Positions 2,379 through 64,000 of a stretch of DNA of 64,000 nucleotides are shown piece after piece; position 1 is the stretch's first letter; every line of letters begins with the position of its first letter. Under the pieces are notes generated by a model, which made no database searches, was not told where the DNA came from, and saw only the letters and a program-made list of their open reading frames with translations. The DNA comes from an uncultured Planctomycetales bacterium. GTDB lineage: Bacteria > Omnitrophota > Gorgyraeia > Zapsychrales > JANLHA01. The stretch covers positions 255,104 to 319,103 of the forward strand of contig CAZAXH010000003.1 of assembly GCA_964489065.1 (NCBI GenBank). The letters are read 5' to 3'. The position numbers and the translations under genes were made by a program.

Positions 2379-2470
2379 CCTTTAGCGAGTGAGCTAAGCG
2401 AACGAGCTGAAGGATTTGGTTTAGGAAACCCGAAGGGCAGGATGCTACTTATTAACCCGCAGTTCCATAA
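2379..2470 (+). repeat. R2 element, partial degenerate copy (middle segment only)
   Basis: Shares GCGAGTGAGCtAAGCGAACGAGcTGAAGGAT and TTAACCCGCAG with the R2 copies at 14578 and 62407. It ends at the RBS of the GYD gene. Confidence 0.4.
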
Positions 2471-2857: not shown

Positions 2858-2975
2858 TATTTATCCACCTTCTGCTTAGGGGATGTCCGCGCGTATGTCA
2901 AGAAGGCAGGCCATTGCGCGAAGCGAATTTTAATCCCATCGGGCAGGCCCCGTCTCTTGAAGGCGGGGATGAGAG
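2858..2975 (+). repeat. R1 intergenic repeat, copy a (shorter and more divergent)
   Basis: Contains GGATGTCCGCGCGTATGTcAAGAAG and GCGCGAAGCGaATT, and ends in the CCCCG...CGGGG hairpin. These cores are shared with six other copies. Confidence 0.5.
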
Positions 2976-4721: not shown

Positions 4722-4856
4722 TTTATTCGCCTTCGCAGAAGACCGCGAGCAGTCCTGTGGCCGTCTCCTTCAGAGATGTTCGCACGGATGTTAAGACATC
4801 CGGTCATTCCGCGAAGCGGATTGTTCATGGGAAACACACCCCTGGGCGCGGCCCCT
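4722..4856 (+). repeat. R1 intergenic repeat, copy b
   Basis: TTATTCGCCTTCGCAGAAGACC...GATGTTCGCACGGATGTTAAGA...CATTCCGCGAAGCGGATTGTTCATGGG...GGGCGCGG. Confidence 0.6.
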
Positions 4857-5048
4857 ATGAAAATTGAATTTATTATAGCAGAGAATTCCGGAAAATAAAC
4901 CGCTCTTTGTGAACTTAAGGGAAGTGATTTTTTCCCCTCCGCGGTATTTTTCCTTAAATCAATGTATTCTTATTAAAATAAGCTATAATAAAAAAGTTAA
5001 AATGGTTTTTGAGGATAAATGTTTTTTCCCGGAGGAGGGTATGCCGTT

Positions 5049-7307: not shown

Positions 7308-7470
7308 GATTATCTCCGACTTCGCCGGAAGATCCCGGGCATGCCTGTGGAGGAACGCGGGAGGTTTATCAGGTCTTCTGTTCCGGGGATGTCCGCGTGT
7401 ATATTAAGACGTAAGAGCGTTCCGCGAAGCGGATTATTCGCAGGGGCCACGCCCATGGGCGTGAGGCTTC
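7308..7470 (+). repeat. R1 intergenic repeat, copy c
   Basis: GCATGCCTGTGGAGGAACGCGGGAGGTTTATCAGGTCTTCTG...GGATGTCCGCGTGTATATTAAGA...GTTCCGCGAAGCGGATTATTCG...CACGCCCATGGGCGTG. Confidence 0.6.
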
Positions 7471-14577: not shown

Positions 14578-14752
14578 TTTATCCAATGAGCATTTAATTT
14601 ACACGACCCAAGGGAGTGTAAACGAGAAATGCGAATTGATCCTTCAGCGAGAGAGTCCAAGCGAACGAGTTGAAGGATATTGGTTAATACCCCGCAGCTT
14701 GCTGCGGTTCATTGAGCCCAGAGCTTGCTCTGGGGTTCATGCCTTTGATTAT
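14578..14752 (+). repeat. R2 structured element, full copy A, in the 5' leader of the giant gene
   Basis: Three hairpins: TTTACAC-N11-GTGTAAA; CCTTCA-N24-TGAAGG; CCGCAGC-TTG-GCTGCGG. Then CCAGAGCTTGCTCTGG and GTTCATGCCTTTGATT. Ends 40 nt before the ATG at 14793. Confidence 0.6.
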
Positions 14753-14792: not shown

Positions 14793-17700
14793 ATGAATAA
14801 GCATTCCTGCCGTATAACAATGATATTTTTGTGTGGGGCGATTTTGACTTTGACTGTGGCCACGGGAGCCGGGGCTAAAGATAACGGAATGAGTTTGACC
14901 GAAAAGGTAGAAAACCTGCTTCGGAAATATGAAACCTTGCGCGATGAAAATCAGGAGATTAAAAATACTCTTGAAGAGGCGGAGGGGCAGGTGGAATTGT
15001 ATAAGGGGAAGTTTATAGAATCGGAAGCCCGGGGGGGGATTCTTCAGAAACAGTTGGAGACGCGTACGCAGGAACTAAAAGAGGCCCAGGCGGCGGTCAA
15101 AGATAAGGAAGGCACCGTGATTCAGGAGGATGAGGCACGGGCGGAACTGGAAGAAACGATCGTTGAATTAAAAGAGGAGAGCAGGCGGCGGGAAGAAACG
15201 ATCCGGGCACTCGAGAAAAAACTCAGAGACACGGAAGCCTCTCAGGAATCCCTGGCTGAGAAGACGGCCTTTGAAAGAGAGGCGGCCGTTCTTAAACGGG
15301 AGAACGAAAGTCTAAAAGAGGATATCCGGAGCCTTGAACAGAAGTTGCAGCAGGCAGACACGGCTTTGAATGACAATATCTCTGCCGCTCAGTTGGCCTT
15401 GAAAAAAGAAATAAAAGAATTGAACGGGGAACTGCAGTTGAAAGGCGCGTTTATCCGCGACGGCGAATTCCAAATAGAATCCTTGAAGAATGAAAACGGC
15501 CGCTTGGTGAAAGAGGCGGAGGATTTGCAGGCGCGTATTCAGGAGCTCACAGCCCGTCACGACAAAAAAGAAGACTCTGTGGCCAGAAAAATAGAGCTTG
15601 CCCGGGAACCGTTACAGAAGAAGATCAATGATTTGCAGGATCAGTTAGAGGCCCTGCAGGCGGAGGTTCCGCGAAAGATAGAGGAGGGCCGCCGGCCTTT
15701 ATTGAGTGAGGTGGAAGAGCTTAGGGACGAGAATGAGGCTTTGAAGAAGTCGATGGAAGAGAAGGTGAGCAGAGTGGAAGAGCCTTTGCAGAGAGAAAAC
15801 GAAGAATTGAAGGCACGGCTGCGGGAGGGGGAAGAAGCCCTTGCCCAGGAAAGCCGCCGGACGGAGCAGTTAGTCGAGGAAAAAATCGGTGCGATAAAAA
15901 AACAGCTTGAGGGGACGGAAGCGTCTTTGGAGGAGAAAGACAGGGAAATTCTTTCTTTGAAAGCGGAACTGGAGAAGGGCGGACAACTCGCTGCTGCGGC
16001 GGAAGGAGAGAAGCAGAAAATAATCAAGGATGCGAAGGACCAGGAAAGAAATTTGCGGCAGCAGGTTGCGGCGCTGGAGAAAGACTTGAAAGCTGCTGAG
16101 AAAAAAGAATCCGCGAAGTCTGTTCGTGAAAAGGAAAATTTGAGGAAAGAGAACGCGGACCTGCAGGCAAGAATTCAGTCGTTAGAAAGTTCCATCCCTG
16201 AAAAAGTAGGGCAGGCCAAGAAACCGCTGATGGAGAGAATTGACAGTTTGCTGGCTGATATGGAGCAGGCGCAAAAGAAAATGGACGCCGAGGTTCAGCA
16301 GGTCCGGGAAGCTTTGGAGGAGAAAGTGTCTGCCCTGGAAGAAGATTTGAGACAGGAACGTGAGAGAAAGAACGACAGCACGGCTGCTCAGGAAGACACG
16401 TTACGTAAGAAAATCGCAGAGCTGGAACAGCAATTGAAAGAGGCGGATACGGTCGCTGCTGAGAAAGTGGCCGCATCCCAAGCCCTGTGGCAGGATAAGA
16501 TTGCCGCTTTGGAGCAGCAGCTGGCGGATCAGAAAGCGGCGTTGCCGGGACAGATCAATCAGGCCAAGAGAGTTGCGGATGAAGAAGTGAAATTGCTGAA
16601 AGCCCAACTGAGAGAGAAAGATTTGACTCTTTCGGCCCAGGAAGAGTCTCTCAAGAAAAATCATGAGGTCAAGTTGCAGAGATGGCAGAAGGATTTGAAA
16701 TCGGCCCAGGATAAAGTCAAAAACCAGGAAGCTGAAATCCGCGGGAAAGAAACGGCTTTGGAGCAAGCCACTCGGGAACTGGAAGCCGTTCGAGCCAGGA
16801 GCGAATCGTATCAGAAGGACATGGCTGCACTCCGTGATCAGTTGAAAAACAGGGAGCAGCAGACAGATCAGATTGTTCAAGAGCGGACGGCGAACTATCA
16901 GGCACGGATAGCCGAGCTGGAAGGGGAATTGAAGAAGATCCGGGAAGACAGCGAGGCCAGATTAGCGGGTGTGATGGATAAAAACGAACAGGAAATGGAA
17001 CGGCTGCGGGAACAGATGAAAGCCAAGGAAGACACCATATCGGAGCGGATTGCCCGGGCCAAACAGCCGTTGGAAGAAGAGATCCGGGGGCTGAACAAAG
17101 AGTTGCGGGCTAAGAAGAATGCCGGTCAAGAGGATAGTCAGGCCGCCCAGAAGCTGTTGGAAGACAGAATTAAAGAACTGGAAGAGCAACTGCAGAAAAC
17201 CGAGAATGCCTTGAATCAACAAGTTGAGGAGGCGAAGGAACCTCTTATAGAAAAAATTCACGCGTTGGAAGAAGCGATAAAAAACGCCGGGGCCGCGGCT
17301 TCGGCGAAGGTGGAAAGCGAGAAAGCGCCGCTCGTGGAACAAATCCGGGTGTTGGAGGAAAGACTTTCGGAAAAGAATGCGCTTTGGCCGGAAAAGATGG
17401 AAGCAGAAAAAGCCCCCTTGCGGGAGAGGATACAGGCCCTGGAAAATCGCCTTAAGGAAAAAGACATTGAGCTTAAAGTAAAGGTCGAGGAGGCGCAGTC
17501 CTCTTTAAATACAGAAATTGTAAAGTTGAAAGAAGATCTGAACGCCACGCGGAAAGAGCATGAGGCCCGGTTGAAAGAAGAGCAGCGCGCCCAGAAAGAG
17601 GTCGTTGAACAGATCAGGAAGGATTTCGAAGATTATAAAAATTCTGAACCTGACAGGATCGCCGCAGCCAAACAGCCTTTAGAGGCGAAGGTGGGAGAGT

Positions 17701-20700
17701 TGCAGAAAGATTTGAAAGAAGCGAAGAGCCGGAAAGATGAAACACGGAAGGCCACCCAGAAACCTCTGGAAGATAAGATCAAGGAACTGGAAGCCAAGTT
17801 AAAGGATCAGGAAGCCGGGTGGGCCGCGAAGGGCGAGGAGGCAAAAACTCCGCTTGTCGAAAAAATTCAGTCTCTCGAGGACGCTTTGAAAGAGCAGGCG
17901 TCTTCCGTAGAAGCCAGGATTGAAGAAGTAAAAGCCCCGCTGCTTGAACAGGTTCGGGCTTTGGAGCAAAGACTCGCGGAAAAGGAATCCCTTTGGCCGC
18001 GGAAAGAGGATGAAGTCAAGGCTCCTTTGATGGAAGAGATTCAAACCCTTAAGCAGCGTCTTGAAGAAAAGAATTCCGAAACAGACCTCAGAATTGCCGA
18101 GGCACAGTCAGCGTTGAAAGAAAACATAGCGGTTTTGAAAGAAGATTTGCGCGCGGCCCGGGCTGATTCGGAAGCCAGGATTAAGGCCGAACAGGAAATC
18201 AGCCGCCAAGAGGCGGAAAAGATACAGAAGGAATTCAAGGAATACAAAGATACAGAAGCGGAACGTATGGCTCAAGTCAGGCAGCCGTTGGAGAAGAAGA
18301 TTGGAGAGTTGCAGAAAGATTTGAAAGAAGCGAAGAGCCGGAAGGATGAGGCCCGAAAAATCGTTCAGAAACCGCTGGAAGATAAGATTAAGGAGCTTGA
18401 GGCCAGGTTAAAGGATCAGGAAACCGAGTGGGCCGCGAAGGGCGAGGAGGCGCGGGCTCCGCTTGTTGAAAAAATTCAGACGCTTGAGGACGCATTGAAA
18501 GAGCAAGAAGCCGCCATAGAATCCCGGATCGAAGAGGCGAAGGCGCCTTTGCTTGAGCAGTTGCAGGTTTTTGAGAGGAGTTTAACGGAGAAGGAATCCG
18601 GGCTTACCGCTCAAATTGAGGCCGCGCAAGCGCCCTTGAAAGAACAGATTAAAAGTCTCGAGGAAGGGTTGCGGCAAAAGGAGGCAGACGCGGCCTCGAC
18701 GGAAGAGACGGCCCGTTTGGCCCGGGAAGAAGACATCCGTTTGGTTCGGGAAGAAGCGGATGAGCGCCTGAAAGCGGAACAGGAGGCCAGTAAACTCGAG
18801 TTTGAAAAGCTTCAGAAGGAATTTGAAGATTATAAGAACAGTGTTGCAGACATAATGGCCCAGGACAAGCACCCGCTGGAAGAGGCCATAGCGACTTTGC
18901 AGAATGATTTAAAAGAATCTCAGGTCAGGAAAGAAGAAGATATTAAACTCGCTAAAAAACCTTTGGAAGACCGGATTAAAGAACTTGAAAGGGATTTCCG
19001 CAAAAGGGGCGCGGAAATTCAGGAAAAGGTTAAGGAAGCGCAGCGTCCTTTGGAAGAGAATATCGCCCTCCTCAAAAAGGACCTGGAAAATAAAGACAAG
19101 GAGTGGGAGGCCAAGATTGAGGAAGCAAAGTTTCCGTTGGAGGTCAAAGTCCGGGCTTTGGTGCAGAAGTTGGATGAGCGGGATGCGGCGATTTCTCGCG
19201 TGATAAAAAAAGCGAAGGCCCCTCTAGAGAAGCAGGTTGAAACGTTAACAGCGCAGATGGAAGACACGAAGAAGACGGTGGCGCAGCAGGTGGCTCAGGC
19301 TCAGGCGCCGTTGCTTGAAAAGAATGAGGCGTTGAAGAAGCAACTTGAGGAGATGGCCGCCGCAGTTCCCGGCCAAATTGCTGAAGCCAGCAAACCTCTG
19401 CAGGAGAAGATCACTGTTCTTCAAGGCGAATTGGCTGCGGCAAAAGACGCTGTTTCCGGGAAAATCGAAGAAATAAAAGCTCCCTTGCAGGAAAGAATTA
19501 ATTATTTGCTTGAAAAAATGAAAACGGAAGAGGCTCTTTATAAAACTAGCATGAAGGCCGATCAGGAAAAGTTTCAGGAAGAAAAGAATAAGTGGGGAGT
19601 TCAACTGCAAGATAGGGAAGGCATGATTCAGGAGAAAGACCGGGAGATCAAACAGCTGGCGAAAGACAAGGAGGCCATGCTGAGGGAGCTTGAAATTGCC
19701 GGAGAGAAAAGTGCGAAGCTGAATGAGCTGGTGGAAAAAGCCCGTGGGGAGAGCCAGTCCATGCAATCCGATCTTCCTCAGAAAATCGCGGAGGCCCAGA
19801 AGCCGTTGCAGGAGAAAATCGGCGCGCTGGAAGAGGAAAAACGGGCGATGGAGGCTTCTTTCGCGGAAAAAAGCGCTAAGGTCCAATCCGGACTGGAAGC
19901 CCAGATTCAGCAGTTGAAAGATGCGATAAAAGCGAAAGACGCCGGTCTTCCGGCCCTGATGGAAGAGGCCAAGAAGCCGTTACAGGCGGAAATAAACAGA
20001 TTGCAGGACGAGTTAAAAAACACCCATTCTTCTTTGCCGGAGGAAATTGTCAAGGCGAAGCGCCCGCTGGAAGAGAAGGTGGCGTCTCTGGAACAGTCTT
20101 TGGTGGAAAAGGACCGGGGGCTTCAGAGGTATTTGAAGGAAAAAGATGATCTTAATAAAGAGCTTGTAGCCGCATTAAAAGAGAAGACGACTTTAAATGA
20201 ACGTGTGTTAACCCTTGAGAAAGACCTGACGGCTGTGCAGTCTCAATCCCAGAGCGGGGAAGAGCAAGTTCGGAAAGAGTATGCGCAGAAAATAGCGGAC
20301 TTGCAGGCGGCTTTGGCGAAAGCCCAGCAGGCGCTTTCCGAGGCCGTGGCTTCGGCCAAACAGCCTTTCGTTGATAAGCTTGCCGGCCTGGAAGAGGCCC
20401 TGAAGACAAAAGACGAGGAGCTGTCCCGCCGGGTCGCCGAAGCCCGGGAGCCTCTCGAGGCCAAGATCGCCTCTTTGGAGCAGCAATTGAAGGAGCAGGA
20501 GACGGCCGGCTCACAGAATGTTGAACAGGCCCGGGCGCCGCTTTTGGCCCGGGTTGAAGAATTGACGAACGCTTTAAAAGCCAAGGAGTCCTCGTCCCTT
20601 CAACAGGTCCGGGAAGCCAAAATCCCCCTCGAGGAAGAAATCCGGAAGCTGAAAGCGGAACTGAAGCAAAATAATCAGTCATTGCCGAAACAGCTGCAGG

Positions 20701-21752
20701 ATGTTCAGAAGCCGTTGGAGCAGGAAATCGCGGCTTTAAAAAAGCAGATACAAGATAAAGATAAAGAATTCTCCCAGCAGGACGCTGCGTTGAGGAAATC
20801 CGACGCCAGGCTTCAGCAGACATTAAATGAATTGGCGGTCGTTCAGAAAACGGTTTTGGACCTTACCACGCAAAAGACCCAGGTTGAACAGCAGCTTTTG
20901 GAAAAGAGCAAATTCGTGCCTCAGCTAGTGGAGGACGCCAAGCGTCCTCTGGTTGATGAAATCAACCGTCTGAAAGAGGAGAACAAAGCGAAGGAGAACA
21001 GCTTGCCTCAGAAAGTCGCTGAGGCAAGCCGTCCGTTGGAAGAAAAAATCCTTACCCTGGAAAACGATCTGCGGCAGGCACAGTCATCGGTAAAGACACA
21101 AATCGAAGAAGCCCGCAAGCCCCTGGAGCAAAAAGTTGCCGCTTTGGAGAAACAAAATAAAGAAACCGAGGGCACGGTTAAAAGTAAACTGGCTGAGGCG
21201 AAGAAACCGCTGGAGTCCAGGATTAAAGCCTTGGAGGAAGAACTTAAGTCCGCCCAGAAACAGTCAGCCCAGCAGGTGGCGCAGGAAAAAAGCGCCGCCG
21301 ATAAGAAGGTTGCCGATTTGCAGCAACAGCTCGGTGCGCTTCAAAAGATGACGAAGGAAAAGGAGACCGCTATTCAGGATATGGAAAAAGAGCTTGACCG
21401 TATTACGATCAGCCTGTCCGCCGTTCAGCAGGAGAATATTTTCTTGAACAATGAGTTGGCGGAAGCCAAGAAATCTCTTCAAACGATTCAAGGTGATCTG
21501 GAGAATAAATATTCCAGAAAACAGGGCGAACTGGAAGATAAAGTCAGTTTTCTTATGGGCGTTATTGACCAAAAAGACGCCCTTTTGCAGGAACAGGTTA
21601 ATCTGGTGGCGGAGAAAGAAAAGCAGATTTCCGCTCTCACCCGGGAGGCTGATGACCTGGCGAAAGATTACTTTGCAATTCTGGATAAGAATGTATCTTT
21701 AAGCGAACGGCTTGAGAAGCTTGAGAAACAACAGGCGGCTCCGGCTAGGTAA
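14793..21752 (+). CDS. Giant secreted repeat protein of ~2,320 aa, built from apolipoprotein-like proline-punctuated amphipathic helices
   Basis: AGAGAGG RBS; signal peptide (ILTLTVATGAGA); about 60 units of ~29 aa of the form [AE]K.PL.E.I..LE..LKE; no Cys beyond the signal peptide. I prefer the ATG at 14793 over the ORF-track start at 14712, whose extra N-terminus translates the R2 repeat. Confidence 0.85.
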   Translation: MNKHSCRITMIFLCGAILTLTVATGAGAKDNGMSLTEKVENLLRKYETLRDENQEIKNTLEEAEGQVELYKGKFIESEARGGILQKQLETRTQELKEAQAAVKDKEGTVIQEDEARAELEETIVELKEESRRREETIRALEKKLRDTEASQESLAEKTAFEREAAVLKRENESLKEDIRSLEQKLQQADTALNDNISAAQLALKKEIKELNGELQLKGAFIRDGEFQIESLKNENGRLVKEAEDLQARIQELTARHDKKEDSVARKIELAREPLQKKINDLQDQLEALQAEVPRKIEEGRRPLLSEVEELRDENEALKKSMEEKVSRVEEPLQRENEELKARLREGEEALAQESRRTEQLVEEKIGAIKKQLEGTEASLEEKDREILSLKAELEKGGQLAAAAEGEKQKIIKDAKDQERNLRQQVAALEKDLKAAEKKESAKSVREKENLRKENADLQARIQSLESSIPEKVGQAKKPLMERIDSLLADMEQAQKKMDAEVQQVREALEEKVSALEEDLRQERERKNDSTAAQEDTLRKKIAELEQQLKEADTVAAEKVAASQALWQDKIAALEQQLADQKAALPGQINQAKRVADEEVKLLKAQLREKDLTLSAQEESLKKNHEVKLQRWQKDLKSAQDKVKNQEAEIRGKETALEQATRELEAVRARSESYQKDMAALRDQLKNREQQTDQIVQERTANYQARIAELEGELKKIREDSEARLAGVMDKNEQEMERLREQMKAKEDTISERIARAKQPLEEEIRGLNKELRAKKNAGQEDSQAAQKLLEDRIKELEEQLQKTENALNQQVEEAKEPLIEKIHALEEAIKNAGAAASAKVESEKAPLVEQIRVLEERLSEKNALWPEKMEAEKAPLRERIQALENRLKEKDIELKVKVEEAQSSLNTEIVKLKEDLNATRKEHEARLKEEQRAQKEVVEQIRKDFEDYKNSEPDRIAAAKQPLEAKVGELQKDLKEAKSRKDETRKATQKPLEDKIKELEAKLKDQEAGWAAKGEEAKTPLVEKIQSLEDALKEQASSVEARIEEVKAPLLEQVRALEQRLAEKESLWPRKEDEVKAPLMEEIQTLKQRLEEKNSETDLRIAEAQSALKENIAVLKEDLRAARADSEARIKAEQEISRQEAEKIQKEFKEYKDTEAERMAQVRQPLEKKIGELQKDLKEAKSRKDEARKIVQKPLEDKIKELEARLKDQETEWAAKGEEARAPLVEKIQTLEDALKEQEAAIESRIEEAKAPLLEQLQVFERSLTEKESGLTAQIEAAQAPLKEQIKSLEEGLRQKEADAASTEETARLAREEDIRLVREEADERLKAEQEASKLEFEKLQKEFEDYKNSVADIMAQDKHPLEEAIATLQNDLKESQVRKEEDIKLAKKPLEDRIKELERDFRKRGAEIQEKVKEAQRPLEENIALLKKDLENKDKEWEAKIEEAKFPLEVKVRALVQKLDERDAAISRVIKKAKAPLEKQVETLTAQMEDTKKTVAQQVAQAQAPLLEKNEALKKQLEEMAAAVPGQIAEASKPLQEKITVLQGELAAAKDAVSGKIEEIKAPLQERINYLLEKMKTEEALYKTSMKADQEKFQEEKNKWGVQLQDREGMIQEKDREIKQLAKDKEAMLRELEIAGEKSAKLNELVEKARGESQSMQSDLPQKIAEAQKPLQEKIGALEEEKRAMEASFAEKSAKVQSGLEAQIQQLKDAIKAKDAGLPALMEEAKKPLQAEINRLQDELKNTHSSLPEEIVKAKRPLEEKVASLEQSLVEKDRGLQRYLKEKDDLNKELVAALKEKTTLNERVLTLEKDLTAVQSQSQSGEEQVRKEYAQKIADLQAALAKAQQALSEAVASAKQPFVDKLAGLEEALKTKDEELSRRVAEAREPLEAKIASLEQQLKEQETAGSQNVEQARAPLLARVEELTNALKAKESSSLQQVREAKIPLEEEIRKLKAELKQNNQSLPKQLQDVQKPLEQEIAALKKQIQDKDKEFSQQDAALRKSDARLQQTLNELAVVQKTVLDLTTQKTQVEQQLLEKSKFVPQLVEDAKRPLVDEINRLKEENKAKENSLPQKVAEASRPLEEKILTLENDLRQAQSSVKTQIEEARKPLEQKVAALEKQNKETEGTVKSKLAEAKKPLESRIKALEEELKSAQKQSAQQVAQEKSAADKKVADLQQQLGALQKMTKEKETAIQDMEKELDRITISLSAVQQENIFLNNELAEAKKSLQTIQGDLENKYSRKQGELEDKVSFLMGVIDQKDALLQEQVNLVAEKEKQISALTREADDLAKDYFAILDKNVSLSERLEKLEKQQAAPAR

Positions 21753-22992: not shown

Positions 22993-23130
22993 TTTTATCT
23001 GCCTTCGCCGGAGACCGATGATGAACGCGAGAGGATGGGCCCTTCTGCTCCGGGATGTCCGCACGTATGTTAAGAAGTCATATCCTTCCGCGAAGGGAAC
23101 AGGTAGCATAGGCACCGCGCTTATGGCACG
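22993..23130 (+). repeat. R1 intergenic repeat, copy d
   Basis: CTGCCTTCGCCGGAGACC...CGGGATGTCCGCACGTATGTTAAGAAG...CTTCCGCGAAGGGAAC...CCGCGCTTATGGCACGG. Confidence 0.55.
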
Positions 23131-23215
23131 GCGTTCCATCAGAATGCCTCAGCGAAACGATCTTTGGGCTTTCACTTGTTTCTCAATATGATTTACGTTA
23201 CAATAAGCATCCGAA

Positions 23216-24328: not shown

Positions 24329-24487
24329 GTTATTCGCCTTCGCAGAAGGCCGCGGGCATGCCTGTGGAGGAAGGCGAGAGGTTCATAAAGTTTTCTGTTT
24401 CTGGATGCTCACCCGCATGTTAAGATGCCGGGGCATTCCGCGAAACGACTTGTTAGTAGGGAGCCACGCTCATCGGCGTGGGCTTCC
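24329..24487 (+). repeat. R1 intergenic repeat, copy e
   Basis: TTATTCGCCTTCGCAGAAGGCCGCGGGCATGCCTGTGGAGGAAGGCGAGAGGTTCATAAAG...CACCCGCATGTTAAGATG...CATTCCGCGAAACGACTTGTTAG...CCACGCTCATCGGCGTGG. Confidence 0.6.
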
Positions 24488-26800: not shown

Positions 26801-26963
26801 TTTATCCGCCTTCGCAGAAGACCACGGGACTTCTCGCGGATGAATGTGAGAGGTTTAACAAGGTCTTTTCTGCTTCGGGGATGTCCGCCCGCATGTTAAG
26901 AAGCCAGAAAACGTCGCAAAGCGAATTGTTAACAAGCGCCGCGCCTGCGGGCAAGGGGCTCGC
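26801..26963 (+). repeat. R1 intergenic repeat, copy f
   Basis: TTTATCCGCCTTCGCAGAAGACC...GAGAGGTTTAACAAGGTCTTTTCTGCTTCGGGGATGTCCGCCCGCATGTTAAGAAG...GTCGCAAAGCGAATTGTTAAC. Confidence 0.6.
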
Positions 26964-56466: not shown

Positions 56467-57120
56467 ATGGCCGTCCGGGACACAGATGAAAATATGCCCG
56501 TGATCTCTCCCTCGAAAGTTTCGAGCTTCTCCACACTGGCCCGCACTTTGTCTCATGATTTTTATGCCTGGCGGTGGTTCTCTTGTCTTTTGGCGCAGCC
56601 GCTGGTCAAGGCCGCTCTGGTTTCAGAAAAAGATATGCGGGCGCAATACCGGGTGCTCGTCCGCATTGAAAAGCAGGAACTTCTGTCTGCGGCGCTTTTC
56701 TTGTTGGCCTTGGCCGGGATGCTGACCCCTTACCGCATGTTTTCCGCCGCCGTCCTGGCCTTGGGATGGTGGCTGTCTTTTTATTTCACGGGCCAAAAGA
56801 AGGCGGTTGTTTTGAAGCTCAGCACATGCTGGCTCCAAAGGGAGTTCCTTCCGGAGGATTTTGAACAAAAGACGTTGTTCCAGATTTCTGAAATCATAAG
56901 CAAGAAATATCAAATCCCATCTCTGGTGGATTCGGTTTATTTCAGCGACTCGGTTTTTAGAATATTGTATCTGGCCTGGTTCCTGTTTCTGCTGGTCCCT
57001 TACCCCATCCCGAATTTTTTTCTATTCGTCGGCTTTTCCGTCCTGGGTGTTGTTTGGATCCGGAATATGTTGAATAGCCGCAGGATTTATCAAAACCACA
57101 AAATTATAGACGTGATTTAA
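56467..57120 (+). CDS. Hypothetical membrane protein
   Basis: 217-aa ORF with 4-5 hydrophobic helices. No motif. Confidence 0.45.
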   Translation: MAVRDTDENMPVISPSKVSSFSTLARTLSHDFYAWRWFSCLLAQPLVKAALVSEKDMRAQYRVLVRIEKQELLSAALFLLALAGMLTPYRMFSAAVLALGWWLSFYFTGQKKAVVLKLSTCWLQREFLPEDFEQKTLFQISEIISKKYQIPSLVDSVYFSDSVFRILYLAWFLFLLVPYPIPNFFLFVGFSVLGVVWIRNMLNSRRIYQNHKIIDVI

Positions 57121-57129
57121 GCCGGGCTG

Positions 57130-59058
57130 TTAAATTCCAAGCAGCAGGGCCGAGATTTTCCATGCCGCCACGAGAACGATGTTTACAAATAACCAGCCGT
57201 TGGGGGATGTCGTCAGGGAGAACACCGTGGATATGAAGGGAAATGAAATTTTTAATTTTTGATAAGACATGTGCCGCGGCTGAAACACGAGCCAGAAAGT
57301 TGTGTAAGACCGCCAATTGATGCTCATCAACCGCTCCTGCTCGAGCATGTTCTGGTACAGACGGGAGCCCGGCAAAGGGGTCAGCAGGGACATGATGGTG
57401 AAAAAAGGGAAAATAGAAAAACAGCATTTCCAATAATCCCACAAGTCTTCAAAATGGTCGGCATCGAAGCCCCATATAAAATTTCCCCGGATTTTAATGC
57501 CCAATTTTTTGATTTTTTTCGTATAGCCGATATACCGGTCCGCCAAAGCGAGCTTGCCTCCAGAATTTCTTTCGGCGGAATGGGCCCGTATTTCATAACC
57601 GATGGTGAGCACGGCGCATCCGCTTTCTTTGGCTAACCGCAGGACATCGTCGTTGGCGGCGATATCAATGCTGCTGCTGGCGCACCACTTTATTTTTAAT
57701 GGCGTTAAGGCCCGGAACAGTTCCGCCGCGTAGCCGGGGTCGGAATAGATATTGTTGTCGATGAAGTTGAAGATTTTATAACGCGGGTGGAGTTTCTGGA
57801 TTAACTCGACAATCTCCCCGACGGGTTTGTGCCGCAGCCGGCCTTCGCACAAGGTGTGAGCCGAACAAAAATCGCAATGGAATTTGCACCCGTGGGTCGT
57901 TTCCAGGTAATCTTTCACTTCTTCATCCGGGGCGGAGAGCAGGGAGTGATGAATTTTTTTGTGTTGCTCTTCTGTGGCCTGCGCGTGATAAACGGGCTTA
58001 AGGGCCCGGGCGTCATAATCTTTGAGGATTTCTTCCCAGCACCCCTCGGCTTCTCCCACGACAACGCTGTCACAGAACTCCAGAGCTTCCTGAGGGAGGC
58101 AGGCGACATGGGGGCCTCCCATAATGACCGAGGCCCCGTGTTTCCGGAAGCTTTTGGCTATTTTATAAGCTTCGATGCTGTTGCAGGTATGACAGGTGAT
58201 GGCCACAAGTACATCAGGGCGGTAGTATCGTTTTCGCCAGAAGACCCGGGAAAAGACTCTTACGCGGTATTCCGGCGGGGTGAGGGCTTTTAAGACCGTA
58301 AAAACAGAAGGGTGGTAGCGGTAACCTAAAAAGGACAGGCTTGTCAGGACGGATCCGCCGCCCATGGGGTTGATGAGGAAAATTTCTTTCTGTGATTTGA
58401 AATGCTCCTGAATCCCTGGCGTGGATTTTAAAAGGATTTTGACAATAAAGATGAATTGCAGCAGGTGCAGGTATGTTGTCAAAAACAGGAATCCCAGGAA
58501 GGCACCCTGGGCTTTCCCGATCAGCATTTGGGAGACCGAGAAAGCGGCGGATTGAAGGACTGTCAGGATCAAAAGCAGCCCGCCTCCGGCCGCGGCCAGT
58601 CTGGTGGGCCAGAGTTTGAATCGGAAGGAGGCGTATTTTCGTCGGATTATTAACATGGCCATGAGAAGTAAGACCGGGATATCGAGCCATAATCCGACCA
58701 ACAGCAGGGGGGCCTTATGCGTTATCGTATATATTAAAAAGAGAACGGTTATTTTTATGGCCTGCAGAACCAAATAAGAGGGCCAGAACATCCGTATGTT
58801 GCGCCCAAAGCGGCCCAGGGTTACGCAGTATTCTTCTCCGGAAGACAATTCCACCAGGGCTCCGTAAATTCCGCTATAAATAAGGAGTTTGAAAAGATAT
58901 ATGGGCGCGGCCAGCAGGATTCCATGGCTTCCAAGGCGGAGGGATTGTGTGTAAATTCCCCAAATATTTTCCTCGCATAAATAGATAAGGATGGCCGAGG
59001 AGAGGTAGGTGTTCAGAATGTGAAAGGAGGATTGAAGGACAGGGCGTGTTTTATTCAT
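57130..59058 (-). CDS. Membrane-anchored cobalamin-binding radical SAM enzyme
   Basis: About 230-aa N-terminal polytopic domain, then a B12-binding-like Rossmann segment (VLVAITCHTCNS...GASVIMGGPHV) and the radical SAM cluster motif CKFHCDFC (Cx3Cx2C). Confidence 0.8.
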   Translation of the reverse strand: MNKTRPVLQSSFHILNTYLSSAILIYLCEENIWGIYTQSLRLGSHGILLAAPIYLFKLLIYSGIYGALVELSSGEEYCVTLGRFGRNIRMFWPSYLVLQAIKITVLFLIYTITHKAPLLLVGLWLDIPVLLLMAMLIIRRKYASFRFKLWPTRLAAAGGGLLLILTVLQSAAFSVSQMLIGKAQGAFLGFLFLTTYLHLLQFIFIVKILLKSTPGIQEHFKSQKEIFLINPMGGGSVLTSLSFLGYRYHPSVFTVLKALTPPEYRVRVFSRVFWRKRYYRPDVLVAITCHTCNSIEAYKIAKSFRKHGASVIMGGPHVACLPQEALEFCDSVVVGEAEGCWEEILKDYDARALKPVYHAQATEEQHKKIHHSLLSAPDEEVKDYLETTHGCKFHCDFCSAHTLCEGRLRHKPVGEIVELIQKLHPRYKIFNFIDNNIYSDPGYAAELFRALTPLKIKWCASSSIDIAANDDVLRLAKESGCAVLTIGYEIRAHSAERNSGGKLALADRYIGYTKKIKKLGIKIRGNFIWGFDADHFEDLWDYWKCCFSIFPFFTIMSLLTPLPGSRLYQNMLEQERLMSINWRSYTTFWLVFQPRHMSYQKLKISFPFISTVFSLTTSPNGWLFVNIVLVAAWKISALLLGI

Positions 59059-59283: not shown

Positions 59284-59448
59284 TTTTATCCGTCTTGCAG
59301 AAGACCTCGGGCCTGCCCGTGGATGAATGCGAGAGGTTAACAATGCCTTGCCTTCTGCTTCGGGGCTGTCCGCTTGTGTGTTAAGACGCCAGATGATTCC
59401 GCGAAGCGGATTGTTCATGGGCCCCGCGCTCATGGGCGCGGGGTTTCC
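59284..59448 (+). repeat. R1 intergenic repeat, copy g
   Basis: TTTATCCGTCTTGCAGAAGACC...GAGAGGTTAACAATGCCTTGCCTTCTGCTTCGGGGCTGTCCGCTTGTGTGTTAAGACG...GATTCCGCGAAGCGGATTGTTCATGGG...CCCGCGCTCATGGGCGCGGG. Confidence 0.6.
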
Positions 59449-61656: not shown

Positions 61657-61687
61657 TGTTTTTTCGTTCCGGCCGTTGGTTTAATAC

Positions 61688-61728
61688 TCCAGAGCTTGCA
61701 CTGGGGGTCATGCCTTTGATTTTCGAAT
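61688..61728 (+). repeat. R2 element, 3'-terminal fragment (copy D)
   Basis: CCAGAGCTTGCACTGGGGGTCATGCCTTTGATT matches the last ~35 nt of R2-A and R2-B. Ends 7-19 nt before the next start codon. Confidence 0.4.
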
Positions 61729-62337: not shown

Positions 62338-62406
62338 AGGCCCTGCATCTTGGAATTCACGTTTTTGTTTTTCATTCAATCCTGCGTTTTTAGCGCAGGA
62401 TTTTTT

Positions 62407-62580
62407 ATTCAATGAGCATTTAGTTTACACGACCCAAGGGAGTGTAAACTAGAAATGCGAATTGATCCTGAGCGCGAGTGAGCCCAAGCGAACGAGTTGC
62501 AGGATGTTGGTTTCATACCCTGCAGTTTCCTGCGTTTCATTGAGTCCAGAGCTTTCTCTGGGGTTTATACCTTTGATTTT
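62407..62580 (+). repeat. R2 structured element, full copy B
   Basis: About 85% identical to R2-A. The same three hairpins are present, with the middle stem changed in a compensatory way (CCTGAG.../...TTGCAGG versus CCTTCA/TGAAGG). Confidence 0.6.
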
Positions 62581-62785
62581 AGCTTTCCTTATTTATAAAT
62601 GTGTGCCGGGAGGTGTTTCTTACCCGGGCCGGTTATCGTGTAACTTTTTGCAGACAAGTCCGTTTATATTTATGACAGCCCTGGAATCCGGCCTGCGGCG
62701 GCTGAGGAAAAAGCGCTGATGAAATATTCAGCGGAATTTTGATAAAACAGGCCTCTAACGATAGGGAAACGCAAAGGAGGCGGTT

Positions 62786-63904: not shown

Positions 63905-64000
63905 GCGAATTGATCCTCCCGCGCGAGTGAGCCAAGCAACGAGCCGAAGGAGGTGGGTTAATCCCCGCGGCGTGCTGCGGTTCATTGAGTCCAGAGCTTG
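63905..64000 (+). repeat. R2 structured element, copy C, truncated by the window end
   Basis: GCGAATTGATCC-TCC-CGCGCGAGTGAGCCAAGCAACGAGCCGAAGGAGG...CCCGCGGCGTGCTGCGGTTCATTGAGTCCAGAGCTTG. The middle stem again covaries (CCTCC/GGAGG). Confidence 0.5.

Follow-up and report, generated by a model that had tools for sequence, protein, structure and literature searches.

Pneumococcal BOX elements are arranged as boxA-boxB(n)-boxC, display length polymorphism, have neighbours of no functional class and show low current mobility (PMC3049150). They exert their effect through secondary structure and carry a leading-strand bias of ~60% (PMC3049150). BIMEs and REP sequences, which form hairpins in transcribed intergenic regions, are thought to function at the RNA level, in attenuation, in termination and in stabilising mRNA (PMC3733652; PMC3049150), and NIMEs, Correia elements and ERIC are co-transcribed and alter the expression of their neighbours via RNase sites, promoters or terminators (PMC3049150). 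Interspersed repeats have barely been described in the Omnitrophota, a phylum whose very small cells are uncultured.

R2 is a structured element that recurs in the 64-kb window, the whole stretch of DNA analysed here, and it is known only from one Omnitrophota genus-level group of activated sludge and digesters. With a probability of roughly 60%, it is a family of composite small interspersed repeats and not a gene-specific regulator. On this best reading the family is new, having no match in Rfam, and its kind is already known from BOX elements and BIMEs. Like BOX, R2 places terminal modules around a variable number of tandem internal modules, occurs in tens to ~100 intergenic copies within one narrow lineage, has extensive secondary structure, varies in length at orthologous sites through the gain and loss of units, and adjoins genes without a common function; most insertions of both are common to strains, which equates to low current mobility. 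The two share no sequence similarity, the R2 unit being ~90 nt long. The initial annotation had taken R2 for an unrecognised motif, which was borne out: only tRNAs passed the Rfam gathering threshold in the window, and a search at E<=10 of the window, copy A, a three-unit copy and the out-of-phylum loci gave no R2 match, the best R2 E value being at least 1.2.

A full R2 follows the order head, one to at least eight tandem ~90-nt units and a twin-hairpin tail, written head-(H1-H2)n-T1-T2. In each unit, a small hairpin precedes a conserved single-stranded linker, which leads into a second hairpin whose 23-nt loop is conserved and purine-rich. The tail has two short hairpins that resemble each other, with GTTYAT after each, and it terminates in CCTTTGATT. 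Copy A (14578..14752, + strand) is complete with one unit, scoring 105.3 bits with the unit model and 96.3 bits with the tail model. Its head hairpin (14583..14639, +) is an imperfect stem of ~22 bp, whose 3' arm is the highly conserved linker AAAYTAGAMATGCGAATTGA; the TTTACAC (14598-14604) and GTGTAAA (14616-14622) described earlier as the first hairpin are present, but merely as the tip of this longer structure. The middle hairpin H2 (14639..14678, +) pairs ATCCTTCA with TGAAGGAT around the conserved, purine-rich loop GCGAGAGAGTCCAAGCGAACGAG. An H2-like hairpin of ~40 nt (ATCCTGAGCGAGTGAGCGAAGCGAACGAGTCGAAGGAT) also occurs in intergenic hairpin clusters of Acidobacteriota and Lachnospiraceae. 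Tail hairpin T1 (14692..14707, +), the third hairpin of the initial annotation, does exist, although its CCGCAGC-TTG-GCTGCGG is better drawn as CCGCAG-CTTG-CTGCGG, followed by TTCATTGAG. T2 (14718..14750, +) is CCAGAG-CTTG-CTCTGG plus the terminal GGTTCATGCCTTTGATT, so that the hairpins number four and not three. A kissing interaction between CAAGC of the H2 loop and GCUUG of the tail loop was considered and dropped, as no covariation was seen.

Every unit contains AGGGA, located in the internal loop of the first hairpin, and AGGA, located inside the H2 stem, and internal units terminate in T runs. Among copies, the stems are far less conserved than GGGAGTGTAAAYTAGAMATGCGAATTGATCCT and the H2 loop, both single-stranded, a contrast that is partly ascertainment since the search patterns were placed in these very stretches. 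Truncated and mosaic copies are common, including T2 only, H2 only, H1-T1-T2 and T1-T2-head-unit-T1-T2. Tandem arrays include one of 6.9 units of 90 nt at 96% identity and, in L014, one of at least eight units.

Within the window, covariance models of the unit and the tail, run with filters off, recovered five copies, all on the + strand and at the places previously reported, and no others in 64 kb; the defining pattern matched four times against 0.00 expected from shuffles. Copy A ends 42 nt before the ATG (14794) of a 2319-aa repeat protein. Copy B (62405..62578, +) has a head, one unit, a degenerate T1 and T2, and lies 207 nt upstream of the ARPP-1 gene (62786). Copy C (63905..64000, +) retains H2, T1 and T2 and is cut by the window end; its remainder is legible at positions 1490-1615 of contig L001, where the next gene starts at 1677, ~61 nt beyond the end of the copy. 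Three near-full copies had been counted, which holds for A and B but not for C, a copy that begins at GCGAATTGATCC and is devoid of the head and first hairpin. Copy D (2379..2470, +) is a decayed relic upstream of a GYD-domain gene (2485), retaining H2 and traces of T1: positions 2379-2413 score 26.7 bits (E 7.8e-5, unit model), and relics continue to 2470. Copy E (61658..61721, +) keeps only T2 and the terminal tail (32.8 bits, E 2.5e-6, tail model), 13 nt upstream of a retropepsin-like lipoprotein gene. The claim that the tail ends 7-40 nt from a start codon thus suits A, E and D, whereas B and C lie farther away. Four of the five downstream genes in the window encode secreted or membrane proteins. 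A terminator-like (intrinsic) hairpin of the gene upstream of copy B (62378..62402, +) has a T run that passes straight into the copy B head, an arrangement repeated at other sites.

The ends of R2 carry a short direct repeat, TTTATT...TTTGATT, which is identical in all copies and belongs to the conserved element, so it is no copy-specific target-site duplication. A repeat search of the window found no inverted pair, and the head (TTTATTCAATGAG) did not match the reverse complement of the tail (AATCAAAGG). The earlier report that terminal inverted repeats and target-site duplications are missing was therefore correct. Its use as grounds for dismissing a repeat origin was not, because several classes of bacterial interspersed repeats also have neither. 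A MITE was rejected, given the missing inverted repeats and copy-specific duplications and the lack of empty sites among the four compared (~25 kb). To the left, R2 is almost always flanked by TT or a T run, and hairpins stand near both ends, traits that, together with the missing inverted repeats and duplications, an IS200/IS605-derived element (PATE) would also have; no Y1 transposase was found in the 530 kb covered, a weak negative for an incomplete genome.

Described families differ from R2 on these points. The terminal inverted repeats of BOX resemble those of ISSpn2; R2 has only its direct repeat. NIMEs, first noticed beside surface-protein genes, and Correia and ERIC elements are structured intergenic repeats as R2 is; Correia and ERIC, however, are simple repeats with inverted-repeat ends, in contrast to the composite R2, which lacks such ends and any sequence similarity to the three. 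BIMEs and REP sequences resemble R2 as short GC-rich hairpins in mosaics, many of them just downstream of coding regions. R2 differs from these in its 22-bp head hairpin and long conserved single-stranded stretches, and in having no REPINs: neither a GTAG nor a CGTC tag lies beside T1, T2 or H2, and all hairpins share one orientation, with no inverted REP pairs. REP or REPIN sequences mobilised by RAYT were rejected on the missing tag and the single hairpin orientation; tblastn in 530 kb found no match to RAYT or IS200 TnpA, a weak negative given an incomplete genome. Plasmids and phages searched by BLAST with R2 and with the H2 hairpin, and viral contigs scanned for the pattern, gave nothing informative.

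In total, 34 distinct R2 sites were found in ~530 kb of related contigs, one further locus (L038) having been left aside as a chance pattern match. The material consists of draft MAGs and metagenome contigs from essentially two close species, the window being ~92% identical to MAG JAGOJP01, so the census and the rates below have a shallow phylogenetic depth. All four comparable sites (~25 kb compared) are occupied in both the window and the sister species. The site of the giant gene holds one, two or three H1 modules among orthologues, and the ARPP-1 site (copy B) holds one or four, the four in the sister species being three complete units plus a part; the indels between orthologous copies measure 178 and 211 nt. 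At the copy E site, the 3' half of H2 is additionally retained in the sister species. Identity between orthologous R2 copies is 80-89%, in addition to their large indels, compared with 91-95% for coding sequences and 93-98% for non-R2 leader by the start codons, and they are conserved no better than other intergenic DNA. Purifying selection on R2 was not observed at orthologous sites.

The initial annotation also spoke of covarying stems, which overstated the case. Only two of ~49 predicted pairs covary. One is in the head hairpin (GC:17/AU:8), where 95.5% of cells are paired, and one is in the middle stem H2 (UA:38/GC:12/AU:1, 7 broken). The tail hairpins T1 and T2 have no double-sided change in 26 distinct tails, are paired to the same percentage as shuffles, and gather mismatches without compensation. 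The ratio of G-U to A-C mismatches is 68:30 in the raw count and 21:30 after removal of three array-inflated or consensus columns; G-U being no commoner than A-C once the inflated columns are gone, the wobble test provides no evidence of RNA-level selection. Relative to shuffles, copies A and B with their downstream leaders have much more stable folds (z -4.0 and -3.9), and copy A alone reaches z -5.15. The reverse strand, however, also folds better than shuffles (z -4.06), which indicates that the folding signal reflects DNA palindromes and points to no single strand.

The intergenic sites of R2 comprise 23 co-directional, 5 divergent and 2 convergent gene pairs, similar to the background of 341, 54 and 56 for all gene pairs. 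BOX is over-represented between convergent genes, and R2 is not (2/30 sites). Between co-directional genes, 21 of the 23 copies lie in the sense orientation and two are antisense (two-sided binomial p about 7e-5), a bias of 91% against the ~60% leading-strand bias of BOX. Orientation relative to genes is thus strong and far from the random arrangement that would have spoken against a leader, yet antisense and convergent-site copies do exist. The antisense copies are intact and lie inside gene runs, one of them in a folE-SDR-folB run, and no gene of matching orientation lies downstream of some copies. Such a 21:2 bias indicates orientation-dependent selection or insertion and counts against the reading as a composite repeat.

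A Pfam scan of 20 proteins encoded downstream of R2 revealed unrelated functions. Cytoplasmic housekeeping genes are among the neighbours: those for a phosphoribosyltransferase, a Clp ATPase, LpxI, a sugar epimerase, radical SAM enzymes, Rex, an ADP-forming acyl-CoA ligase and an isocitrate/isopropylmalate-type dehydrogenase and, recognised by eye, rpsB-tsf. Listing the downstream genes across related contigs, suggested earlier as a way of defining a regulon, yielded no coherent functional class. Both earlier interpretations, a dedicated cis-regulatory RNA of envelope-protein genes and an operator shared by them, conflict with 34 sites whose neighbours are unrelated and include housekeeping genes, and with the variable architecture; overall, the initial annotation's observations were confirmed in part and its interpretation was supported in part. 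Across sites, the tail lies 0-479 nt from the start codon, and the upstream ORF in several cases runs at its 3' end into the R2 head. Several copies stand directly after a terminator and at most 22 nt upstream of the next start codon; at such places, a promoter inside R2 or read-through is needed. Only two copies (L003 and L019) are followed by a terminator of their own. T2, and the degenerate T1 of copy B, satisfy simple terminator criteria in some copies.

The many dispersed intergenic copies, the ordered modules, the variable tandem number, the length polymorphism and the unrelated neighbours all argue for a composite repeat. R2 may have multiplied in the ancestor of one Omnitrophota genus and settled in T-rich intergenic spots, often right after a stop codon, terminator or tRNA gene and often near the next start codon. 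The four comparable sites filled in both species, and the lack of inverted repeats, target-site duplications and a transposase, count against mobility, which would belong to the past; present-day change would proceed by point mutation, loss of modules, and gain or loss of units through slippage or unequal recombination. Because nearly all copies are sense to the surrounding genes, they are probably co-transcribed, and they would then act on their neighbours in a generic, structural way, probably affecting mRNAs through the hairpins alone. A hairpin with its U-rich stretch could act as a leaky terminator, 3'-end protector or processing site for the upstream message, R2 could form a structured 5' leader for the downstream message, and unit number might be an accidental tuning knob. 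The two covarying base pairs and the conserved single-stranded linker and H2 loop count against reading R2 as a repeat of this kind.

The alternative that survives best, although an unlikely one, casts R2 as a generic cis-acting RNA module that is under selection and may be an exapted repeat. Its hairpin and U-rich modules would uncouple cistrons by processing, stabilising or attenuating messages, or an abundant RNA-binding protein would attach to its units, whose number would tune the outcome. The sense bias, the strong conservation of the single-stranded linker and H2 loop, the two covarying pairs with stable predicted folds, and the terminator-like T2 and degenerate copy B T1 of some copies are consistent with this, and an H2-like hairpin in distant phyla could indicate a shared partner. 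Against it, orthologous copies fall below the adjacent true leaders in conservation and do no better than other intergenic DNA, the tail hairpins decay uncompensated, antisense and convergent-site copies remain intact, and unit number is free to vary between close strains. Two features of R2, its unusually marked sense bias and the recurrence of the middle hairpin across phyla, could yet conceal real biology. In a more specific version, which appears doubtful, R2 would be a lineage-specific sense-strand RNA platform whose units offer AAAYUAGAMAUGCGAAUUGAUCCU and the purine-rich loop to an RNA-binding protein or nuclease, and whose fast-changing unit number would set the expression of ~30 or more unrelated genes, that of the giant surface protein included. 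If so, the hairpin in Acidobacteriota and Lachnospiraceae would point to a widely conserved partner.

It is improbable that R2 is a DNA operator or enhancer cassette, with the 7-bp inverted repeat of each unit (ACAC..GTGT or TTTACAC..GTGTAAA) as a dimeric transcription-factor site that tandem units would multiply, or an outward promoter, TTTACA-N15/16-TAAAYT, in the first hairpin. Palindromic units do stand in tandem upstream of genes, and one copy has a 9/12 sigma-70-like match inside the first hairpin, but a palindromic site would need no 21:2 orientation bias, copies lie between convergent genes or antisense in the folE-SDR-folB run, and the unrelated gene set speaks against one regulator. 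The hexamer spacing is 15 nt in most copies, outside the usual range, and the promoter scan was negative in A, B and L009; a sigma-70 promoter was accordingly rejected, the single match being confined to one copy. A sigma-54 promoter (TGG-N-GC at the unit-tail junction) was also rejected, since the spacing varies by 1 nt between copies as judged by eye. Equally improbable is the proposal that the units are small-RNA genes, each giving a ~60-nt RNA of linker seed, H2 and U-rich end, or a CsrB/RsmZ-like sponge for a GGA-binding protein. The conserved single-stranded linker beside a hairpin with a covarying stem resembles sRNA conservation, T runs end internal units, AGGGA and AGGA occur in every unit, and L003 and L019 have their own terminators; yet no unit has a convincing promoter, most elements abut the next start codon and not a terminator, and the GGA of H2 is buried in a stem. 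No CsrA or Hfq homologue was matched by tblastn in 530 kb, a weak negative with an incomplete genome.

The lowest probability falls to a riboswitch, thermosensor or protein-binding leader that specifically controls a regulon of envelope or secreted-protein genes, a reading that the variable architecture and the list of genes have already largely refuted: the window favoured it with four of five downstream products secreted or membrane-bound, three copies ending 13-42 nt before a start and a stable fold, but the downstream genes are heterogeneous and many are cytoplasmic housekeeping genes, units number anywhere from one to at least eight, with truncations, the tail lies 0-479 nt from the start, covariation is almost absent, no Rfam relative was found, and two copies are antisense, two occupy convergent sites and some lack a same-orientation downstream gene. 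Tandem structured motifs of Rfam, such as tandem riboswitches and STAXI, likewise repeat structured units on one strand; R2 differs in having no such covariation, fixed architecture, coherent gene association or model at E<=10. Read as a composite repeat, R2 would be a clean case of a structured, repeated "5'-UTR motif" that proved to be something else, and it cautions against reading riboswitches into the paralogous copies of a single genome. An integron attC array and CRISPR were rejected as well, for unique spacers between the units and a single long imperfect hairpin are both missing, as are nearby integrase or cas genes. A small ORF from the invariant linker ATG was discarded because the following stem has indels of 0-3 nt, which change the reading frame from one unit to another.

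R2 arrays do give rise to spurious ORFs in annotation; no paper was found on spurious peptide strings encoded by such hairpins. The repeats also break and scramble assemblies, as seen from a Logan contig that ends inside copy B and from an N gap that interrupts an array in a MAG scaffold. The same arrays are ready variable-number markers for typing activated-sludge strains.

R2, a repeated hairpin element of about 175 nt, is best read as a new family of composite small interspersed repeats outside any named family, a reading to which a probability of roughly 60% is given on the basis of its anatomy, its restriction to a narrow taxonomic group, the varying number of units, the presence of relics, the unrelated neighbouring genes and the absence of constraint. 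The five + strand copies of the initial annotation, A (14578-14752), B (62405-62578), C (63905-64000), D (2379-2470) and E (61658-61721), were confirmed by reading the sequence. Covariance models of the unit (59 distinct copies) and the tail (26), run with filters off, detected these five places alone in the 64 kb. Copy A scored 105 bits with the unit model and 96 bits with the tail model, and copy B 107 and 88 bits, while the partial copies C, D and E, the last two being truncated relics, gave E-values of 2e-4 to 2.5e-6. The middle-hairpin pattern GCGAGNGAG-N2-3-AAGC-N0-1-AACGAGNNGNAGGA matched the window four times against 0.00 expected from shuffles, and the tail pattern matched three times. 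The hairpins first described are present, but they number four instead of three, the first forming the tip of the head hairpin, which is 22 bp long. Copy C, taken to be near-full, is missing the head and first hairpin, and the supposed distance of 7-40 nt to the start codon does not hold for copy B, with 207 nt between its end and its gene, or for copy C, with about 61 nt. Rfam matched only three tRNAs in the window, leaving R2 without a match even at E<=10.

In related contigs, R2 is visibly modular, consisting of a head, tandem units and a tail. The head, TTTATTCAATGAGCATTTAGTTT, forms a long hairpin jointly with the first unit. The units, of 89-91 nt each and numbering from one to at least eight, comprise a small hairpin (ACAC-GA-CC-nnn-GG-GA-GTGT), the linker AAAYTAGAMATGCGAATTGATCC and a second, middle hairpin with the loop GCGAGWGAG-NNN-AAGCGAACGAG. 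The tail carries two similar hairpins, CCGCAG-CTTG-CTGCGG and CCAGAG-CTTG-CTCTGG, each followed by GTTYAT, and ends in CCTTTGATT. On one contig (L015, 6209-7000) the head lies 3 nt after a tRNA-Arg(ACG) gene and is followed by 6.9 units of 90 nt with 96% identity (Tandem Repeats Finder). The tail of this array meets the ATG of a PAS-domain sensor gene directly, with neither spacer nor Shine-Dalgarno sequence; in its internal units GCCCCGATCAGGGG, a different hairpin, takes the place of the small hairpin's 5' half. Truncated and mosaic forms are common: some copies keep nothing but the tail or the middle hairpin, others combine the first hairpin with a tail, and in others a tail is joined to another complete element. 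Because assemblies break at R2, the number of units counted in a draft assembly is a lower bound. The Logan contig L001 stops within the copy B head (its position 1 is window 62413), and a JAGOJP scaffold (L014, 2037-2135) has an N run interrupting an array of 8 or more units.

An exact-pattern scan of a species-representative genome collection, from which the window's own genome is absent, found R2 on 22 contigs of one MAG, Candidatus Omnitrophota bacterium Go_SlDig_bin_317 (JAGOJP01), together with four isolated hairpin matches elsewhere. A linker-plus-hairpin pattern recovered 30 loci from metagenome contigs, mostly from one activated-sludge assembly. Across orthologous stretches these contigs share 90-95% identity with the window, and all R2 copies found therefore belong to one genus-level group.

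Clustering by flanks gave 34 distinct sites, with three contexts set by hand from Pfam and ORF inspection: 21 sense and 2 antisense between co-directional genes, 5 between divergent and 2 between convergent pairs, and 4 with one flank unknown. The resulting classes (77% co-directional, 17% divergent, 7% convergent) match those of all adjacent pairs in the contigs (341/54/56), so R2 is not enriched upstream of genes. The sense bias, 21:2 between co-directional genes, is real (two-sided binomial p about 7e-5), and suggests either greater harm from antisense copies or a coupling of insertion to the direction of transcription or replication. The two antisense copies, both intact, separate folE from a short-chain dehydrogenase gene in one case and two transporter genes in the other. 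The tail lies 0 to 479 nt from the next start codon and the head -15 to 479 nt from the upstream gene, often overlapping the upstream ORF end or directly 3' of an intrinsic terminator (window 62378-62402; L052; others); two copies have a terminator of their own 3' of R2.

The association with envelope-protein genes, seen within the window, fails across these sites, where Pfam assignments of the downstream genes reveal functionally unrelated neighbours. They include an M23/LysM peptidase, a solute-binding protein and a retropepsin-like lipoprotein among envelope or secreted proteins; radical SAM/B12 enzymes, a phosphoribosyltransferase, LpxI, an NAD-dependent epimerase, an ADP-forming acyl-CoA ligase and an isocitrate/isopropylmalate-type dehydrogenase in metabolism and cofactors; a Rex-type regulator, a response regulator with an HD domain, PilZ and a PAS sensor in regulation and signalling; and a Clp ATPase, a Mut7-C RNase, ARPP-1 and GYD. 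At one further site the downstream genes, identified by eye, are rpsB-tsf.

Orthologous sites differ in module content between close relatives: one, two or three small-hairpin modules precede the giant gene 3' of copy A, one or four precede the ARPP-1 gene 3' of copy B, and at the third and fourth sites R2 is truncated differently. Over aligned columns, R2 shows 80-89% identity, plus indels of 178 and 211 nt, compared with 91-95% for flanking coding sequence, 92.7% between species for the 207-nt non-R2 leader of the ARPP-1 gene (62579-62785), 97.6% for the 41-nt leader of the giant gene and 85-87% for other intergenic DNA. R2 is thus no more constrained than ordinary spacer DNA, and the sequences adjacent to start codons are more so. 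Since 62579-62785 is better conserved than both R2 and the terminator region, the ARPP-1 gene probably has its true promoter or leader there, downstream of R2. No sign of recent movement was seen, all four comparable sites being occupied in both the window and the sister species.

Other features of these regions were observed in passing. The giant gene (14794-21752) encodes a highly repetitive, coiled-coil-like protein of 2319 aa with a signal peptide, is about 93% conserved in the sister species, and is internally repetitive at the DNA level, with among others two 300-nt repeats of 78% identity spaced 609 nt apart. At 56755-58579, overlapped by a 642-aa ORF on the - strand (57130-59058), the sister-species contig L031 aligns on both sides and not across, which may mean that sequence was inserted or deleted in one of the two species.

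Covariation was assessed by base-pair counts on three alignments of distinct copies. Double-sided changes are absent from the tail (26 copies, 13 pairs), where 90.5% of cells are paired against 90.8% in shuffles and most pairs depart by mismatches only. In the unit (59 copies, 14 pairs) one middle-stem pair covaries (UA 38, GC 12, AU 1, GU 1, broken 7), and in the small hairpin all changes are wobbles or mismatches. The covarying middle stem reported initially (CCTTCA/TGAAGG, CCTG/CAGG, CCTCC/GGAGG) is correct for those three copies but reduces to one position. The head hairpin (27 copies, 22 pairs) likewise has one covarying pair (GC 17, AU 8, broken 2), with 7 of 22 pairs departing by mismatches only. 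As the copies are paralogues and array neighbours, each covarying pair may represent a single ancestral event marking a subfamily, and mixed stems within arrays look like recombinants. Mismatches number 68 G-U to 30 A-C, of which 47 G-U cases come from three columns (single arrays or family consensus); without these the counts are 21 to 30, and in tails 12 to 14, offering no hint that the sense RNA is under selection. Folding of copies A and B with their downstream leaders far surpasses shuffled sequence (z -4.0 and -3.9), as does copy A alone (z -5.15); its reverse strand does likewise (z -4.06), as DNA palindromes would, so the fold signal is uninformative on which strand matters.

A generic RNA module maintained by selection is an unlikely alternative, kept in view by the bias towards sense orientation and by the conservation of the single-stranded segments. 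A DNA operator or promoter cassette is improbable: the first hairpin (window 14598-14627; L052 13050-13077) contains one weakly sigma-70-like match, TTTACA-N15/16-TAAAYT (9/12 where the spacer is 16), from which an outward-facing start could fall at the conserved linker, exactly where copy C starts, but this leaves the orientation bias and the antisense and convergent copies unexplained. An sRNA array or protein sponge is comparably doubtful, since the units are without promoters and terminators of their own and no CsrA or Hfq match was obtained in 530 kb (approximate queries, incomplete genome). A specific riboswitch or regulon leader is contradicted by the unrelated genes, variable architecture and missing covariation and is very improbable. 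The initial riboswitch or operator interpretation is largely unsupported.

Read as a composite interspersed repeat, R2 most resembles, among described elements, the pneumococcal BOX element, in which boxA and boxC surround a variable tandem boxB array, with length variation at orthologous sites, neighbours of no functional class and low current mobility, and which probably acts on co-transcribed genes via secondary structure (PMC3049150). BIMEs/REPs and NIMEs are further relatives in kind (PMC3733652). R2 differs from these in having no terminal inverted repeats, no GTAG or CGTC tags, hairpins that all face one way, a long head hairpin and strongly conserved single-stranded segments, and its sense bias far exceeds that reported for BOX. 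With few exceptions the copies lie in sense orientation and take up the gap from stop codon or terminator to the next start codon, and are therefore probably transcribed with their neighbours. Co-transcribed in this way, the hairpins and U-rich GUUYAU could cause leaky termination of the upstream message, protect its 3' end or offer single-stranded A/U-rich cleavage sites, and R2 would form a structured leader on the downstream message; gain or loss of units would alter these effects by accident. Hairpin-bearing ends without TIR or TSD and a T-rich left flank make spread by a single-strand (IS200/IS605-like) or other hairpin-recognising mechanism compatible with the data; approximate tblastn queries found no transposase in 530 kb of related contigs from an incomplete genome.

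The residual interest of R2 lies in its strong sense bias and in a hairpin shared across phyla. The middle hairpin alone (..ATCCTGAGCGAGTGAGCGAAGCGAACGAGTCGAAGGATCT), nearly base for base and without other R2 modules, occurs in one MAG each of Acidobacteriota and rumen Lachnospiraceae and in two other Omnitrophota, on contigs L018 (129-166, -), L028 (1247-1290 and 2647-2684, +), L004 (5034-5063, +) and L012 (384-419, -). In Acidobacteriota and Lachnospiraceae it sits in intergenic hairpin clusters, twice within 1.5 kb in the latter; Rfam, plasmids, phages, viral contigs and the literature yielded no identification.

A second structured intergenic family of roughly 170 nt, unrelated to R2 and presumably the R1 of the initial annotation, has seven + strand copies in the window (2870-2929, 4723-4857, 7324-7470, 23041-23136, 24330-24451, 26802-26962 and 59285-59447) and no match in Rfam. 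Their mean column identity is 63%, and a long-range stem (GCAGAAGRCC/..CTTCTGC) plus a TCCGCGAAGCGGA hairpin are predicted, with double-sided changes at 3 of 30 predicted pairs. Like R2, R1 precedes + strand genes.
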